Below are positions 2,984 through 61,478 of a stretch of 64,000 nucleotides of DNA, piece by piece. The notes under the pieces were generated by a model that saw only the letters and a list, made by a program, of their open reading frames with translations, made no database searches and was not told the origin of the DNA. Position 1 is the stretch's first letter; each line of letters starts with the position of its first letter. Source of the stretch: Eledone cirrhosa (taxonomy: Eukaryota); NCBI GenBank assembly GCA_964016885.1, contig OZ024743.1:250418001-250482000 (forward strand), in the 5' to 3' direction. A program made the position numbers and the translations under genes.

Positions 2984-3895
2984 CGTTTCTGAATTTGTTT
3001 AGCAAGATTCTTTATCTGAAAACGTGTGTTGAAACCGATATTGTTATGCTTTAGGAGGGTCACGTTGCCAATAAGAAACACATGCACCAGTTGCTTTCAC
3101 TCCAATTTATTATAAATTTAAGAATTTATAAATTTCCGGTTGGTTGGTTGGTTCCATAACCGGACGGTTGTTCATATATTGTCAAAGTTCTTTCGTCACA
3201 CATTCTGTGACCTCTTCAGTGACTGGGGATTCTTTTCTTTGTTTTGTGCCTCTCCTTTGTTCTGTCCTACGTCATCTTGCTTTTGTGTATGTTGTGTGCT
3301 TAGTTTGTGCATGTGTTACATCCGGGTGTCTGTGTGTGTTTTTATTTGTTTATTTACATGTTACTGGTTGGTTGTTTGTTCTATGTGTGTGTGTGTTTTC
3401 ATTTTGTCCTTAATTGTAAGTTGTGATGTTGCTATTGTATTCATGTTTTCTATTTAATTTTGGTTGGAGTTCATTTATGTTTATGGCCTCTGTCATTTGT
3501 CTAAACATTGCGTCTTTTCTGTGTGTAGATTCTATTTTTATTTCTATGTTCTCTAATTTGCCCTTATGTTCTATTTTTTATTTTTTTAAATAGAACATAA
3601 GGGCAAATTAGAGAACATAGAAATAGAAATTGAATCTACACACAAAAAAGACGCAATATTTAGACAAATCACAGAGGCAATAAACATAAATGAACTCCAA
3701 CCAAAATTAAATAGAAAACATGAATGGAATAGCAACATCACAACTTACAATTAAGGACAAAATGAAAACACACACGCACATAGAACAAACAACCAACCAG
3801 TAACATGTAAATAAACAAATAAAGAAACAAATAAAAACACACACAGATACCCAGATGTAACACATGCGCAAACTAAGCACACAACACACACAAAG
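2984..3895. mobile_element. Penelope-like element 3' end (GIY-YIG C-terminus plus pseudo-LTR) as a head-to-head inverted pair
   Basis: 3590-3736 (+) translates IEHKGKLENIEIEIESTHKKDAIFRQITEAININELQPKLNRKHEW, resembling a GIY-YIG C-terminus. Inverted copy at ~3285-3575. Further copies at 34072-34416 and 45510-45830. Confidence 0.75.
3181..3223 (-). ncRNA. Minimal type I hammerhead ribozyme candidate
   Basis: Minus strand reads GTCA CTGAAGA G GTCACA-gaatg-TGTGAC GAAA GAAC TT TGAC, with stems I and II paired. Confidence 0.6.
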
Positions 3896-46916: not shown

Positions 46917-48739
<1,823 letters not shown>

Positions 48740-49089
48740 TATACATTATGTCAACACCACAATATGACATACACACACACACATAATACCTTCTACTTTA
48801 GAAAATAAAAACCCGAACTAAATAAACCTTAACTTACGTTTGCACTGGCAATACAACAACAAACACGAAAAAGTAAGGAAAATATGTTCATTCAAAAATA
48901 TTCCTACTAAAGGAATCACTTTCCTACACACACACATACACACACACACAATATATATATATATATATATATTCTCTTCATCTTAACATGCTAACCATAC
49001 TCCCACACACATAACACCCATACACACACATAACAACCCCCACACCTACAACTCCCTCCCCCTATCTCTACTAATAGAATCATCTTCCA

Positions 49090-49171
<82 letters not shown>

Positions 49172-49685
49172 ACACACAAGCACACAAATAAACATACATA
49201 TCTTCACTTCAATAGAAAATCTGAACTCTGACACCCCGGCCAGCTGGCCATATTCACTGAACCAGAACAATTCTCCCAATCCCTTTTCTCTTGACCACTA
49301 TCTCTCCATTGTCATAACATTCTCTATAAAGACTACAGAATAGTTTTCCAAATAAGGGCGCAAAAATGTAATGAAAACTTGTTCACGTGACAGCCAAATT
49401 TCATTTATAACCAACCAAAAAAAAGCCTTCGTGAGCCTCCTTTTTTCAAGTAAAAAGAAATTCAAACACTCATATATGAAAAAACAACCTGTGACAACCC
49501 CCCCTCTCTTATTTGAAGAACTATTGTAACGCGAACTGGCGCGAAATTTATTATAATTATTGACAAACCAATCAAATTACTTCTCGAAAAACCTGGCATT
49601 TCGAGCCACTTTTTCCATATAAAACAAGTAACATTCAGAGACCAACCAGATGTGAGAAAAACCACAGACCCTCCATCTCAACTCA

Positions 49686-49723
49686 CCTTTTGAAAAGCAG
49701 AAGAACTGCGAAACCGGTAAAGG
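49686..49723 (+). ncRNA. Minimal type I hammerhead ribozyme in the PLE pLTR (U3-A8 core variant)
   Basis: CCTT TTGAAAA GCAG-aagaa-CTGC GAAA CCGG TA AAGG. Identical copy at 57692-57729 (-). Confidence 0.75.
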
Positions 49724-49888
49724 AACCAAATAAATATATATATTTAAAAAAAAAATAAGACTCCAGTTGCATTTTCGATTTCATCTCTTTTTCTTTATAC
49801 TTTCACTCGTGTAGGACATCTCGGTTATTTTTCATTTTGTAAAAAAAACCTCACTTTCTAATATATACCCACCACACGAAGACCGAAA

Positions 49889-51091
49889 ATGCCACCAAAG
49901 TCTCAACAAAACAACAACTCACTGAACCAGGACATCTTAAATGAACTCAAAGAGATTTCCTCTAAACTCTCAATTTTGACCAACAAAGTGGACCAAATAC
50001 ACATCTATAAAAAAGGACCCCACGAAGAAACAGAAAATACCCAAGAGACGAATATTACTCCAGTATTAACTAAGCTAATCGAAACCATTGAAACAGCAAT
50101 GCTCCAAAAGCTTGAACAACCGTCAGAACCCAATCTACGAGATGTCCACTCAGTGAAAAACACCCTAATCAACATATGGACTCAAAAGCTCACAGCCCGC
50201 AAATTCGCCCTTTGGAATCTCCTAAAAAATAATGGCAAGGCAGACATATATGAAAAGTGGCTAAACTCTACCCCAATCATCCTCCCCAAAAAACTCCAAA
50301 TAAAACCCATCCCGAATGAACCAGAAAACCAACAAAGACTTAGGGAAAAGATGGCATTGGAAAAATTTAAAACAGAAATAGAACTGTTGCGATTAAGAGC
50401 CAACTCCAACGAAGAAAAATTCAAGTCACTCGACCAACAGATGGACACAGAAATCTCAAAGCACTCTGAAGGCCTACTCTACAAAAAAACCCTAAAACTT
50501 TGGAAAGAAAACTGTGAGGATGAAGAACTAACATCCCTCCAGCGATGGGAAAAAAACGCCACCTGGTTCAACAACTACGAAATGGACTTCAAAAATGAAC
50601 AACATACAGGTAACCCATTTTTAAAACAAACTAAAACTCACACACCACATGCACAACAAATAACAAAAAAAGTAACAAAACGTCCAACATACCCCCAGCA
50701 AAACTATAACGATAATCCCAGAAACCATAGACAAAACTATAACCCTACTAACAAAAACCAAAGATCCCCGAACACAAGGCAGGACCTGATCCGCAGATCA
50801 CAACCCACACAAAACCTATTCCAAAACCGTAGACCCCTGCCCACACAGAGCCTGTTCCAAAACCGTAGATCCCAACCCACACAAAGGAACCAAATCTACA
50901 GCCCGGACTATCAACAAACCGAACCTCAATACGTCCGAAACTCCTATACAAGACGACACAACAACAGAGGAAATACCATTAGATATAATAATACCAATGA
51001 AAAAACATTCCAGAAAAATCATTTTTTAGACCAAGGCTACAGGACTCACGACACCCGGTGGCACAAACCGATTTTGAAAAACCGAAAATAA
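49889..51091 (+). CDS. PLE ORF1, 400 aa: predicted coiled-coil middle and Q/N/R/P-rich C-terminus
   Basis: Uninterrupted ATG-TAA ORF between the pLTR and the RT N-terminus. 12-aa repeats RRSQPTQNLFQN/RRPLPTQSLFQN. Confidence 0.8.
   Translation: MPPKSQQNNNSLNQDILNELKEISSKLSILTNKVDQIHIYKKGPHEETENTQETNITPVLTKLIETIETAMLQKLEQPSEPNLRDVHSVKNTLINIWTQKLTARKFALWNLLKNNGKADIYEKWLNSTPIILPKKLQIKPIPNEPENQQRLREKMALEKFKTEIELLRLRANSNEEKFKSLDQQMDTEISKHSEGLLYKKTLKLWKENCEDEELTSLQRWEKNATWFNNYEMDFKNEQHTGNPFLKQTKTHTPHAQQITKKVTKRPTYPQQNYNDNPRNHRQNYNPTNKNQRSPNTRQDLIRRSQPTQNLFQNRRPLPTQSLFQNRRSQPTQRNQIYSPDYQQTEPQYVRNSYTRRHNNRGNTIRYNNTNEKTFQKNHFLDQGYRTHDTRWHKPILKNRK
51022..51028 (+). promoter_or_regulatory. Candidate -1 programmed ribosomal frameshift site U_UUU_UUA
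   Basis: In ORF1 phase (caT TTT TTA). The -1 frame is open directly into the PLE motif IINISNTNLS..ILSKGLKFTPTP. Confidence 0.7.
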
Positions 51092-51723
51092 TTAACATTT
51101 CAAATACAAACCTCTCAGCCAAACAAGTAAAAATTCTCTCCAAAGGTCTGAAATTCACACCAACACCACAATACCCTAACCCAACGAGATAAATGACGAT
51201 ATCTCACACTTCTGTAGAAAATTACGTCTCACAGAGGAATTCTTTGACAAGGAGAATAACGACGAATCAATTGTACGGAATAAAAGCAGCTACAACCCAA
51301 CAAAAGGTAGAAACAGAGTTCTGGACAAATTTTGTGACCACATAGCTACCTTCCCATACCATGAACTACCGCAACCTAAACCCAAACCCAACACAAGTCG
51401 AAGGGAATGGGAGATTATCCATGAACTAAAAAACAATACGGACATTGTAATTAAGGAAGCGGATAAGGGAAGTACTGTTGTCATTATGGAGGCTGAAAAA
51501 TATAAAATTCTATGTTCTCTCTCTTACAAAATACTAATTACTATGAAAGAGTAAAAAAACTACCAGCAATCAAAAATAATGACCAAATTAAACACACTGA
51601 TTTATCGATACCAGGAAGACCTAACTAAAAAGGAACGCGATTATTTAACAAATTGTGAATACAAAACCAGCAACCTTTACGGACTTCCGAAGATCCACAA
51701 ATGTAAAATAATCAACGATGCCT
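51028..51723 (+). pseudogene. PLE RT N-terminal region (frameshifted by decay)
   Basis: NLS..LSKGLKFTPTP, FCRKLRLTEEFF, IVIKEADKGSTVVIM (DKG motif) and LYGLPKIHK. Confidence 0.88.
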
Positions 51724-54651: not shown

Positions 54652-56307
54652 CAGATCCAGGGAACGGGGCCTGAGGATAGGAAGAGGAAATGGCTAGACC
54701 ATTTTAGGACCCTACTAGGAGAGCCACCCTCCACAGCCCAGAGCAGTGGGGAGATCAGGCGGCTGTTTGAGGAACTGGATGTTGAGACAGAGCCCTTCAC
54801 CAGAGAGGAGCTTCAGAGAGCCAAGAAGAAGATCAAGGAGGGCAAGGCTCATGGAGAGGATGGAGTGGCATCAGAGGTGATGAAGAGGTGTGATTTTGAT
54901 GATATCATCCTGGGGTTCTGTAACGGGGCACTGGAGAAAGGAGTTGCCCCGAATCAGTGGAGGATCAGTAACATCGTCCCAGTGCCAAAGAAGGGAGATC
55001 TCTCTAACACCAACAACTACCGGGGGATCTCACTGACGTCACTTGTGGCAAAGACCCTCAACAGGATGATTCTTAACAGGATCCAGCCTGAGATGGAGAA
55101 GAAGCTCAGGGACAACCAGAACGGCTTCAGAGAGGGTAGATCAACCACCAGTCACATCCTGATGCTGAGGAGGATATTAGAGGGAGCTAGAGCAAAGTGC
55201 CTTCCTGCGGTCATGGTTTTCATTGACTTTAGGAAGGCCTTTGATTCTGTGGACCGTTACTGCCTGATGAAGATCTTACAGGCTTATGGAATCCCCAAGA
55301 GGATAGTGGACCTGATATCACTGCTCTACACCAACACCAAAGCCCAAGTCATTACACCTGATGGGATGACAGAGTTCTTTGAGATACTGGCTGGAGTGCT
55401 CCAGGGAGATACATTGGCTCCCTACCTTTTTATCATCGTAGTGGACTATTGTATGCGCCTTGCACTGGAGAAATACCAGGACACTGGCTTTACTGTAGCA
55501 CCGGCTCAGAGCAGGAGAGTTGGGGTGAAAAAGGTATCGGATGCTGAATTTGCCGACGACATAGTTTTGGTGACAAATACAGTGAAGGAGGCAGAGGATT
55601 TGATGCGGGAGGTTGAGACTGTGTCGATGAGTGTGGGGCTGAGAATGAATGAGACTAAAACAAAATATCTGGTGGAGAATGTTGAGAAGCCAGAGGGGAT
55701 CACTAATGTAGGCGGGAAGCCGCTGGAATTGGTTGAGGACTTCCTGTATTTGGGAGCAAAGATTGGGAATACGGAAGATGATGTGGTTGGGAGGAAGAGC
55801 AAGGCCTGGGCGGCATGTCACAGCTTGAGATCGGTGTGGAAGTCGGACCTTCGTAGAGACCTGAAAATCCACCTATTCATTGCTGTAGTGGAGTCTGTGC
55901 TGCTGTATGGGTCTGAGACTTGGACACTGACCAAGAGACTCACTCAGATGGTGGATGGGTGCTACACGAGAATGCTGAGGATGGCTCTGAACATTAATCA
56001 GTATACACTGAGGATGAAAAACTCAGAGCTGAATGGGAGCATCCCAAAAGTCAGCTCAAAAGTGACACAGAGGAGACTGAGGTTGGCTGGACATGCTCAC
56101 CGACATCCAGAGTTGACATTGCACTCAGTGCTCCTTTGGGAGCCCCTACATGGACACACTAGAAGAGGAAGACCAAGGTTAACATATGTTGATGCCCTAA
56201 GGACAGACACTGGTCTGTTGGAGATGCAGGATATGGCAGCGATAATGAGGGACAGAGACCGCTGGAGAGAACTCGTCCATGGATCTCGGGAATTTTACCC
56301 GCCTTAG
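54652..56307 (+). CDS. RTE-group LINE reverse transcriptase, 5'-truncated but reading frame intact (~550 codons)
   Basis: PVPKKGDL..NYRGISL, QNGFREGRST, FIDFRKAFDSV, GVLQGDTLAPYLF, FADD, FLYLG, LLYGSETW, RLRLAGH, RGRP. The frame is open upstream of the listed GTG to ~54652. Flanked by (TA)n. Confidence 0.93.
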   Translation, partial: QIQGTGPEDRKRKWLDHFRTLLGEPPSTAQSSGEIRRLFEELDVETEPFTREELQRAKKKIKEGKAHGEDGVASEVMKRCDFDDIILGFCNGALEKGVAPNQWRISNIVPVPKKGDLSNTNNYRGISLTSLVAKTLNRMILNRIQPEMEKKLRDNQNGFREGRSTTSHILMLRRILEGARAKCLPAVMVFIDFRKAFDSVDRYCLMKILQAYGIPKRIVDLISLLYTNTKAQVITPDGMTEFFEILAGVLQGDTLAPYLFIIVVDYCMRLALEKYQDTGFTVAPAQSRRVGVKKVSDAEFADDIVLVTNTVKEAEDLMREVETVSMSVGLRMNETKTKYLVENVEKPEGITNVGGKPLELVEDFLYLGAKIGNTEDDVVGRKSKAWAACHSLRSVWKSDLRRDLKIHLFIAVVESVLLYGSETWTLTKRLTQMVDGCYTRMLRMALNINQYTLRMKNSELNGSIPKVSSKVTQRRLRLAGHAHRHPELTLHSVLLWEPLHGHTRRGRPRLTYVDALRTDTGLLEMQDMAAIMRDRDRWRELVHGSREFYPP

Positions 56308-57496: not shown

Positions 57497-57550
<54 letters not shown>

Positions 57551-57552
<2 letters not shown>

Positions 57553-58543
57553 GAAAGTGAGGTTGTTTTTTTTTACAAATTGAAAAATAACCGAGGTGTC
57601 CTACACGAGTGAAAGTATAAAGAAAAAGAGATGAAATCGAAAATGCAACTGGAGTCTTATTTTTTTATAAAATATATATATTTGTTTGGTTCCTTTACCG
57701 GTTTCGCAGTTCTTCTGCTTTTCAAAAGGTGAGTTGAGATGGAGGGTCTGTGGTTTTTCTCACATCTGGTTGGTCTCTGAATGTTACTTGTTTTATATGG
57801 AAAAAGTGACTCGAAATGCCAGGTTTTTCGAGAAGTAATTTGATTGGTTTGTCAATAATTATAATAAATTTCGCGCCAGTTCGCGTTACAATAGTTCTTC
57901 AAATAAGATGGGGGGGGGGGGGTTGTCACAGGTTGTTTTTTCATATATGAGTGTTTGAATTTCTTTTTACTTGAAAAAAGGGGCTCACGAAGGCTTTTTT
58001 TTTGGTTGGTTATAAATGAAATTATGGCTGTCATGTGAACAAACTTTCATTAAATTTTCGTGCCCTTATTTGGAAATCCATTCTGTAGCCTTTTTAGAGA
58101 ATTTTATGATAAGTGAAAGATAATGGTCAAGAGAAAGGGATGGGAGAATTGTTCTGGTTCAGTGAATATGGTTAGTTCGCTGGGGTGTCAGAATTCAGAT
58201 TTTCTATTGAATAAAGACAGTAAAGATATGTATGTTTATTTGTGTGTTTGTGTGTGTGTGCGTGTGTGTGTGTGTGTTGTGTGTGTGTGTGTTTGAATTT
58301 CTTTATTTTAAAAAAGGTGGCTCACGAAGGCTTTTTTTTAATAAACGTGATTTGATTGGTTCGTGACAGCCAAATTTCATTTATAACCAATCATATCACG
58401 TTTATTAAAAAAAAGCCTTCGTGAGCCACCTTTTTTTAAGTATAGAAATTCAAACACACACACACACACAACACACACACACATACAAGCACACAAATAA
58501 ACATACATATCTTTACTGTCTTTATTCTATAGAAAATCTGAAT
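57551..58543 (-). mobile_element. Solo pLTR/3'UTR of the 47-kb PLE family, with a nested inverted fragment
   Basis: 57551-58280 is the reverse complement of ~49140-49861. 58290-58543 contains rearranged and inverted pieces of the same sequence. Confidence 0.88.
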
Positions 58544-59079: not shown

Positions 59080-60430
59080 TCTTGGTTCCAAGAATTACCC
59101 GACAAACGCCACACTCGTTTCCTGCAACTCGACATAGAAAACTACTATGCTTCTTTCTATCTCAGAGCCCCTCCCGAAGGACGCACTTACTTTTGCCAGG
59201 AATTTTACCACCATAACCGATGCTGAGTAAGATGTTATCCTCCATGCCCGTAAGACCTTCCTATACCACGACGGATCTTACTGGATCAACAAGAAGTCTC
59301 AGACCCCCTTTGACGTCAACATAGGAGCGAGTGATTCGGCTGAAATAAGCGACCTTGTGTGCCTGTACATTTTACATCACCTGAAGAACCTCTTTACTGG
59401 CCTCACCGGAGGTTTTTACCGAGACGACGGCCTCTTCTCCCCGCACAAGGTTAACCCCAGAACCGATGGGTTTCGGAGAAATTTAAGCTCGTTCTTCCGT
59501 AATCTAGGATTTAGTATAACTATAGAATCTAATATGACTAGGGCCAACTTTTTAGATGTCACTCTCGACATAGATACTTCCTTCTATTACCCGTACCACA
59601 ATCCTAATGAGTCCCTTAGATTTATTAATGTTAATTCTAACCACCCAAAAAACATCACTGATAACTTAGTAAAAAGCGTCTCAATTAGATTCTCCGGCCT
59701 CTCGGCCAATGAAGATATATTTAACGCTTCTGCCTCCTACTACAATGACGCCCTCGCCCGCAGCGGATTTAAAGAAAAGACAACTTACCTAGACACCACC
59801 GCAAGACTGCATAGGAGGAATAGGCATAGGCAGATTAGCTGGTACAACCCTCCCTTCAATAGAGAGGTCTATACATCTATACCTAGGATTTTCTTCACTT
59901 TGCTGAAGACACACTTCCCCATACAACATAGGTACTACACCATCTTCAATAGGAACACATTAAGACTCTCCTACTCCACTACACCTAACCTAGCTAACCA
60001 CCTCCGAACCCAATCCCCGGACTGAGGCCTTGTGCAATTGCCTAAATAAGGAAGCCTGCCCACTTGAAAACAAGTGCCTGACAAATGACATCGTATACAA
60101 ATGCGATGTCATCTCAAGCACCGATGATTGCAACAACAAAAAGACTTACATCGGCATGACTTCCAATAACCTTACCCACTCCTTCAGAAGACCGGACAAA
60201 TCAAATCAGACAACACTCGCCTCCTATTTTTGGGACCTCAAAAGGAACTCCACCTCTTCACGCTTAAATGGAAAATACTCCAGAAAGTGCGCTCATACAA
60301 CGGAGGACACAAGTGCTGCGACCTTTGTATCTCAGAGAGCTACGAAATATTATTCGCCAAGGGCCGCTACTGAACAAACTCTCTGAACACTGCCCGAACT
60401 GCATGCACAAAAACTCTGCAACTTTCAAAT
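59078..60430 (+). mobile_element. Second, distinct Penelope-like element (RT C-half plus C-terminal GIY-YIG), 5'-truncated and decayed
   Basis: FDVNIGASDSAEISDLV, FYRDDGL, NFLDVTL, SNHP, WYNPPF, IFNRNTLRLSYS, CNC..CPL..KCL..IVYKC..TYIGMT, TLASYFW, LLNK.SE. (TA)n on both sides. Confidence 0.85.
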
Positions 60431-61478
60431 ATATATATATATTTATATATAGAGGCAAATGGCTTAGTGGTTAGAGCATTAGGCTTGCAATCGAAAGGTT
60501 GTGAGTTCAATTCTCAGACCGGGTGATGTGTTGCTTCCTTGAGCAAGACACTTTATTTCACATTTCTGCAGTTGACTCAGCTGTAGAAATGAGATGATAG
60601 GGACCCCAGTCCTATCATTCCACTGAAAAGTGGTCATGGAGGTGCCACAGCAAAAAAGCACCCAGCACTCACTGTAAATGAGGTTGCTGTAGAAATCAAG
60701 CCAGAATCAGTTCCCGTCCCACCCTTGCAAGCAGGGAAAAGCGGACGTAAAATGTTGATGATGATGATGATATATATATATCATCATCTCATCATCATCA
60801 TCATTTTACGTCCGCTTTTTCCCTGCTTGCAAGGGTGGGATGGGAACTAATTCTGACTTGATTTCTACAGCTGGATGCCCTTCCTAACACCAACCTCATT
60901 TACAGTGAGTGCTGGGTGCTTTTTTGCCGTGGCACCTCCACGACCACTTTGCAGTGGAATGATATGGACCCCTGTCCCTATCATCTCATTTCTACAGCTG
61001 AGTAAACTGGAGCAATTTGAAATAAAGTGTCTTGCTCAAGGAAACAACACATCACCCGGTCTGAGAATTGAACTCACAACCTTTCGATTTCAAGGCCAAT
61101 GCTCTAACCACTATGCCATGTGCCTCCACATATATACTCACAACACATCTATAGATATATATATATATAGATGTGTTGTGAGTTCAATTCTCAGACCGGG
61201 TGATGTGTTGTTTCCTTGAGCAAGACACTTTATTTCACATTGCTCCAGTTTACTCAGCTGTAGAAATGAGATGATAGGGACTGTAAAGTGGACATGTAGG
61301 CGCCACGGCAAAAAAGCACCCAGCACTCACTGTAAATGAGGTTGGTGTTAGGAAGGGTATCCAACTGTAGAAATCAAGCCAGAATCAGTTCCCGTCCCAC
61401 CCTTGCAAGCATGGAAAAGCGGACGTAAAATGATGATGATGATGATACATTATATATATATATATATATATATTGGGT

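Follow-up and report, generated by a model that had tools for sequence, protein, structure and literature searches.

Copies of a Penelope-like element (PLE) in the genome of Eledone cirrhosa show a peak of 5′ ends, one base wide, at the predicted scissile bond of a hammerhead ribozyme motif carried by the pseudo-LTR (pLTR) of the element. This minor peak, at position 49720, has in our view likely preserved in the genome the traces of cleavage in vivo, which affected roughly 2% of the copied RNAs. The reading that we judge probable is that the hammerhead, which has a U3-A8 core, cuts a small share of germ-line RNAs, and that most of the RNA is copied unspliced and uncut. Coordinates refer to the window, that is, the whole 64,000-nt stretch of contig OZ024743.1 that was analyzed.

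A probable Neptune-type PLE in partial tandem

Judging from its sequence, the element appears to be a (TA)n-targeting Neptune-type PLE, arranged as a partial tandem of two units with the following parts:

47030-48739 (+): 5′-truncated, frameshifted RT with C-terminal GIY-YIG, upstream unit (profile matches and translation)
48740-49867 (+): 3′ UTR/pseudo-LTR between the tandem units (partial tandem and inverted copies, 30 loci)
49889-51091 (+): ORF1, 400 aa (translation)
51029-51722 (+): first part of the downstream unit's RT frame, truncated, then (TA)n
57543-58295 (−): solo pLTR copy, hammerhead at 57729-57692, ending at RT start site 2 and then (TA)n

The upstream unit has the order RT followed by C-terminal GIY-YIG, as for EN+ PLEs, the RT match being a sub-threshold one on a fragment (RVT_1, E=3.6e-4, below the Pfam cut-off) and the GIY-YIG domain matching its Pfam profile with E=1.8e-7. 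Partial tandem pLTRs, inverted 5′-truncated arms and an optional tail, which are also features of EN+ PLEs, were all found. A C-x4-C-x2-C linker precedes GIY-YIG in the ORF at 48224-48739 and fits the CX2-5CxxC linker of Neptune/Nematis, and the insertions are flanked by (TA)n, as for the targets of that clade. The Cys linker and the (TA)n targeting thus point to Neptune/Nematis; the protein homologue search, which found 28 relatives, gave no clade placement. ORF1 had no Pfam match. The RT frame follows ORF1 through a −1 shift. A slippery heptamer lies there, at 51022-51028 (+), with structure behind it; the six T of the heptamer are kept in 20 of the 22 copies shown, and programmed frameshifting likely operates at the ORF1/RT junction.

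The window also holds an unrelated non-LTR element with an RVT_1 frame of 475 aa (54880-56307, +), a tRNA-like match that is probably the head of a SINE (60460-60517, +), and a frame without a Pfam match that resembles the RT end of another PLE (59534-60025, +), which we take to be similar to Naiad.

A U3-A8 hammerhead with a palindromic stem III

The ribozyme motif lies in the pLTR upstream of ORF1:

49686-49723 (+): minimal hammerhead of type I with a U3-A8 core and a palindromic stem III (descriptor, stem covariation)
49686-49689: stem I, 5′ strand
49690-49696: core UUGAAAA
49697-49700 and 49706-49709: stem II
49710-49713: GAAA
49714-49717: CCGG
49718-49719: UA
49720-49723: stem I, 3′ strand
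49719/49720 (+): predicted scissile bond (genomic 5′ ends form a minor peak at 49720)

The first-pass annotation had called a pLTR hammerhead with a U3-A8 core here, and every sequence feature that it named is present at its position. The motif conforms to the type I core Y3-U4-G5-A6-N7-R8-A9 / G12-A13-A14 / U16.1-H17 with a 3-8 pair, which is U3-A8 in this case, and with A17. Positions 49713-49718 form a perfect 6-nt palindrome, consistent with the palindromic stem III of the dimer type that had also been proposed. Folding of the monomer is predicted to be weak (−4.7 kcal/mol for stems I and II), and the predicted duplex through the palindrome has −8.3 kcal/mol.

A hammerhead descriptor gave 3 matches on both strands of the 64-kb window versus 1 match in 20 shuffled windows, indicating that the ribozyme fold is above chance; the Rfam search of the window returned no hammerhead at the gathering score. 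The three matches are both pLTR copies and one unrelated motif at 3219 (−). The latter has a C3-G8 core and lies near a 251-nt inverted repeat (3326-3838). Across the 3.0-Gb assembly, the 25-nt ribozyme core had 12,246 exact matches (control, 0). The second pLTR copy had been put forward as keeping all features of the motif and its surroundings at 57600-57729. They are indeed present there, on the minus strand, but this copy, which stops before the ATG, is 98% identical over 351 nt, so that the agreement reflects youth rather than selection and does not amount to conservation.

Searching for further hammerheads that share the palindrome of the element, we obtained 275 matches, compared with 29 in the control. 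From 30 loci (L268-L297) we used 28, the other 2 being members of the element's own family; they fall by eye into about seven families and are not independent. U3-A8 occurs in 21 of the 28, and a GIY-YIG frame lies upstream in L294 and L278. Differing stem sequences still pair across the sister families, although some families have 0-2 stem I pairs: 73 stem I pairs were observed versus 41 with shuffled partners, and none of 5,000 shuffles reached as high, a result that is not a p-value since the loci are related. We discarded the conservation of the palindrome in these loci as circular, because the search pattern required it. Independent support for the palindrome comes from family B alone, which was found by homology (L196-L225; 1,316 candidates). 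In this family, stem II has compensatory changes, stem I consists of 3 A-U base pairs, and an A13C change is fixed in the core; its ribozyme may be dead or a variant, and the family may serve as a natural control.

Most sampled copies span the predicted cleavage site

To see where copies of the element end, we sampled 80 regions, which contain 81 of the first 100 places (contig C1 in every case) among 7,852 matches with an intact acceptor. BLAST yielded 125 pieces; sister-family matches and repeat artefacts were then filtered out by length, identity and end position, leaving 113 arms. Their ends define the following features:

49647-49648 (+): inferred RNA 5′ end, likely the pLTR transcription start (arm 5′ ends)
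49770-49799 (+): pyrimidine tract up to the element end, RT start site 1 at 49799 (arm 3′ ends)
49800-49867 (+): 68-nt "tail" between the two RT start sites (arm 3′ ends)

The 3′ ends lie at 49794-49799 in 28 arms and at 49863-49867 in 82, and (TA)n follows; both ends (49799 and 49867) recur as loose ends in all four public runs that were covered, out of five listed. The 5′ ends are distributed as 22 upstream of 49647, 62 at 49647-49659, 9 at 49660-49717, 3 at 49718-49724, 12 at 49725-49746 (in part reflecting an internal TA run) and 5 beyond that. The cleavage site was thus crossed intact by 93 of the 113 arms. Counted by eye among the 83 distinct (TA)n-joined loci listed, 24 start at C49647 and none at 49646, and the base added before A49648 is an extra G in 10 versus A in 5. 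From this sharp edge at 49647-49648 and the mild, cap-like excess of G, we infer that transcription starts there.

Two further features of the leader were noted. A start-stop mini-ORF at 49650-49655 (+), 2-3 nt past the inferred start, contains the sole upstream ATG. A canonical poly(A) hexamer lies at 49729-49734 (+), 10 nt past the cut, with an A run and a U-rich tract behind it. Copies seldom end at this hexamer, and family B lacks it at that place.

A candidate intron that begins at the cleavage triplet

The cleavage triplet GUA had been read as a candidate splice donor paired with an AG behind the pyrimidine tract. GT at 49717 and AG at 49814 would bound an intron of 98 nt, with 74 nt separating 49814 from the ATG at 49889:

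49714-49722 (+): candidate donor-like 9-mer, 6/9

If this intron (49717-49814) were spliced from the mRNA, splicing would destroy the hammerhead, and unspliced RNA would serve as the template and be cut occasionally. Several observations are in its favor. The acceptor-like site has 32 pyrimidines in 40 positions and no upstream AG; it scores best of the 86 YAG on the sense strand of the element, and its score is equalled by 7 of 3,233 YAG in the window. The donor would lie 69 nt past the inferred start, compared with 46 nt in Drosophila virilis Penelope (PMC2377424), and 5′ UTR introns are described for Penelope and Chlamys (PMC2377424, PMC8557442). In family B, both the GT of the triplet and a branch-point-like motif are retained, and the first AG lies 106 nt downstream.

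The donor itself argues against the intron. Scored against a 9-position consensus, it reaches 6/9, a level found at 6.0 sites per kb of the window, and 4 of the donor's matches are fixed by the ribozyme palindrome. Nor is it conserved as a donor: in the 28 sister loci, all of which score 5-7, position +3 is A in 18, T in 8 and C in 2, hence a pyrimidine in 10, and position +5 is G in 3, while the bases following the cut track stem I pairing. As a donor, the triplet is at background level, mostly dictated by the ribozyme and not kept in sister families, and the GT is probably a by-product of the palindrome, its coincidence with a splice donor being incidental. On the acceptor side, the strong context stands, but the AG does not carry over to family B, whose first AG aligns with 49766 rather than 49814. 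A small hairpin (49809-49819) carries the candidate AG (49813-49814) in its loop; the family B homologue of this hairpin has no AG. A similar pyrimidine tract precedes the (TA)n junction, that is, the 3′ end of the element, in most sister families, which speaks against the tract as a splice signal; it likely belongs to the RT-start signal. Furthermore, the sole upstream ATG (49650) is located outside the proposed intron.

We looked for the spliced junction in the genome and in public runs. None of 24 copies with altered bases before 49815 carried the 49716-49815 junction, compared with 7,852 unspliced copies genome-wide, and two other GT-AG-compatible junctions were seen once each (L065 and L072). 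Since PLEs retain introns when they move (PMC8557442), spliced copies are not expected and their absence is weak evidence. L072, in which 49766-49814 (49 nt) is deleted, has a 3/9 donor and 1-nt microhomology and was not counted as splicing. The 49716-49815 joint was likewise absent among 15 of 41 joints seen on 49240-51715 in contigs of the four public runs, none of which is recorded as RNA; such an absence from contigs carries no weight. Taken together, we regard the 98-nt intron as unlikely, though worth keeping in mind; a weaker form of the earlier model, in which splicing protects the mRNA from the ribozyme, is conceivable.

Copies that begin at the predicted scissile bond

A pattern for copies beginning at 49719/49720 matched 115 times genome-wide, versus 51 for the same design at 49700, the one position that served as control. 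By eye, a non-template base directly precedes 49720 in 63 of 100 listed rows, versus 22 of the 51 control rows, 11 of which represent a 7-nt deletion. Using a gap pattern, we fetched the 100 listed of 755 rows as 42 regions, which gave 48 arms. Among these, 11 start at 49720, 4 at 49719, 8 at 49718 (where TA microhomology blurs the end) and 5 at 49722; the other 20 are spread over 49693-49717, with smaller clusters at 49706-49709 in stem II (9 of 48). None starts at the donor cut 49717, a further point against the intron. The gap pattern favors near-anchor junctions for inverted arms, and several rows are both arms of one event.

Among 30 loci of the 49719/49720 pattern, comprising about 24 independent events, both arms of a single insertion start at the cut in L177/178 and L181/182. 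Short duplications or jumps that restart at the cut were found in L170, L172-175, L184, L188 and L192; such restarts are expected at a physical RNA end. In L172 (G000:C1:152839362-152839417), the first 9 nt past the cut are present three times, reminiscent of a telomerase-related RT that realigns repeatedly at the end of its template. L176 was rejected as a true 5′ end because it is an A-run expansion. Exact 49720 starts make up 2 of the 113 arms described above (~2%). In the opposite direction, just 34 copies diverge directly after 49719, compared with 12,246 cores, suggesting that the template is mostly uncut and that the 5′ cleavage fragment is rarely primed. The one-base peak points to the proposed cutting at 49719/49720.

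The same peak could arise without cutting in vivo if the RT stalled at a folded or protein-bound hammerhead, either at the foot of stem I or ahead of the paired palindrome, and stem II does collect 9 of 48 ends. Stalling would also be compatible with the lack of a stem I subfamily effect, starts at 49718-20 not differing between the 4-bp and 3-bp subfamilies (22:14 versus 25:22, p=0.51), with the weak in vitro cleavage of minimal hammerheads (PMC4209133), and with the anole element, for which PMC11167929 describes a hammerhead that needs protein and no RNA-seq ends at the site. However, the peak is one base wide and lies on the scissile bond rather than before stem I (49724), and stalling does not readily account for the both-arm starts and the duplications restarting at the cut. 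We therefore find stalling a rather doubtful explanation.

Fate of the element RNA

The probable reading, infrequent cutting of RNA that is otherwise copied unspliced and uncut, can be set out as follows. The RNA would start at about 49647-49648 from a pLTR promoter, and the element RT, primed from nicked (TA)n, would begin inside the RNA at 49799 or 49867. Running to the RNA 5′ end, the RT would generate the thousands of hammerhead-bearing copies of 150-220 nt. Pairing of two RNAs through the 6-nt palindrome, or a protein that folds the motif, may let the ribozyme cut, after which the RT would run off at 49720. Cutting within the 5′ pLTR would cost the ORF1 mRNA its cap; given this loss, the ribozyme is likely a low-level brake, or serves release from read-through transcripts, rather than being a template-making step.

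A more elaborate reading would assign three fates to the same 9-nt stretch. U1 binding would lead to splicing, which destroys the ribozyme and leaves a protected mRNA; RNA left unspliced and uncut would be the template; and unspliced RNA dimerized through the palindrome would be cut and decapped in a dose-sensing brake, its products fossilized as copies starting at 49720. We view this as tentative and on balance improbable.

It is also conceivable that the acceptor at 49814 is real but paired with a donor at 49652, so that the intron would hold the entire ribozyme. Position 49652 also scores 6/9, and copy L065 joins 49651 to 49815 precisely. This is one copy genome-wide, however; exon 1 would be only 4-5 nt, family B lacks this GT, and other inversion junctions (L109 and L184) contain short pieces of the start region in forward orientation without GT-AG. 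Because such fragments arise without splicing, we rejected L065 as a spliced retrocopy, and we consider this pairing very unlikely.

The full model of the first-pass annotation, in which splicing makes the mRNA and self-cleavage separates the template RNA from it, draws on the fact that each event would destroy the other's site if the intron were real and that some copies start at the cut, but it is contradicted by the copy-end counts and hardly tenable, as the 93 of 113 arms that span the site derive from unspliced and uncut RNA, just 3 start at 49718-49724, and 3′ ends 80 and 148 nt past the cut imply that an uncut 3′ hammerhead is needed.

Discussion

[quoted passage not shown] A genomic record of cutting bears on this question of activity in the cell: insertion ends offer a single-base readout, which suggests in-cell cutting that is dispensable for template making. 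Counting copy ends can be applied to any genome or family, with core-mutant families as controls. In a search that took in few subscription papers, we found no published report of a donor at the cleavage triplet or of insertion ends at the cut, and the accessible part of a 2026 preprint contains nothing on splice sites. U3-A8 cores and an overlap of intron and hammerhead are already known in PLEs (PMC4209133) and are not new in themselves; the supplementary alignments of that paper may hold related motifs.

The closest ribozymes are those of Schistosoma mansoni Cercyon, a U3-A8 variant, and other metazoan PLEs; PMC4209133 describes U3-A8 cores for PLEs of S. mansoni, as well as palindromic stem III and weak dimer cleavage. 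The motif in Eledone shares with them the type I fold, the location in the pLTR, the U3-A8 covariation, the G10.1-C11.1 pair, a short palindromic stem III and the occurrence as thousands of dispersed single copies. It differs in that stem II is 4 bp without a bulged base at its 5′ end, U3-A8 is dominant, and the copy ends suggest cutting in vivo.

With D. virilis Penelope (PMC2377424, PMC4209133), the element has in common a pLTR promoter and a short leader that contains the hammerhead. The Penelope intron is proven; it is 75 nt long, begins 46 nt after the start (PMC2377424), and its 3′ end overlaps helix I (PMC4209133), whereas the overlap here would be at the 5′ splice site of a candidate intron.

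With Neptune/Nematis (PMC8557442), it shares RT followed by C-terminal GIY-YIG, CX2-5CxxC, microsatellite targeting and tandem or inverted insertions, but here a 400-aa ORF1 is joined by a family-wide −1 shift.

Poseidon of Anolis carolinensis offers the closest parallel for copying. According to PMC11167929, the RT starts internally at two sites, unprocessed RNA is the main substrate, and the hammerhead is protein-assisted, RNA-seq ends not having been found where it cuts. In Eledone, the tail bounded by two RT start sites, the AT-rich targets and the mostly unprocessed template fit this description. The differences are that the Poseidon hammerhead overlaps the start codon, whereas the motif described here is situated some 170 nt upstream of the ATG, and that the present element has a non-coding tail of 68 nt and a cut marked by genomic 5′ ends.
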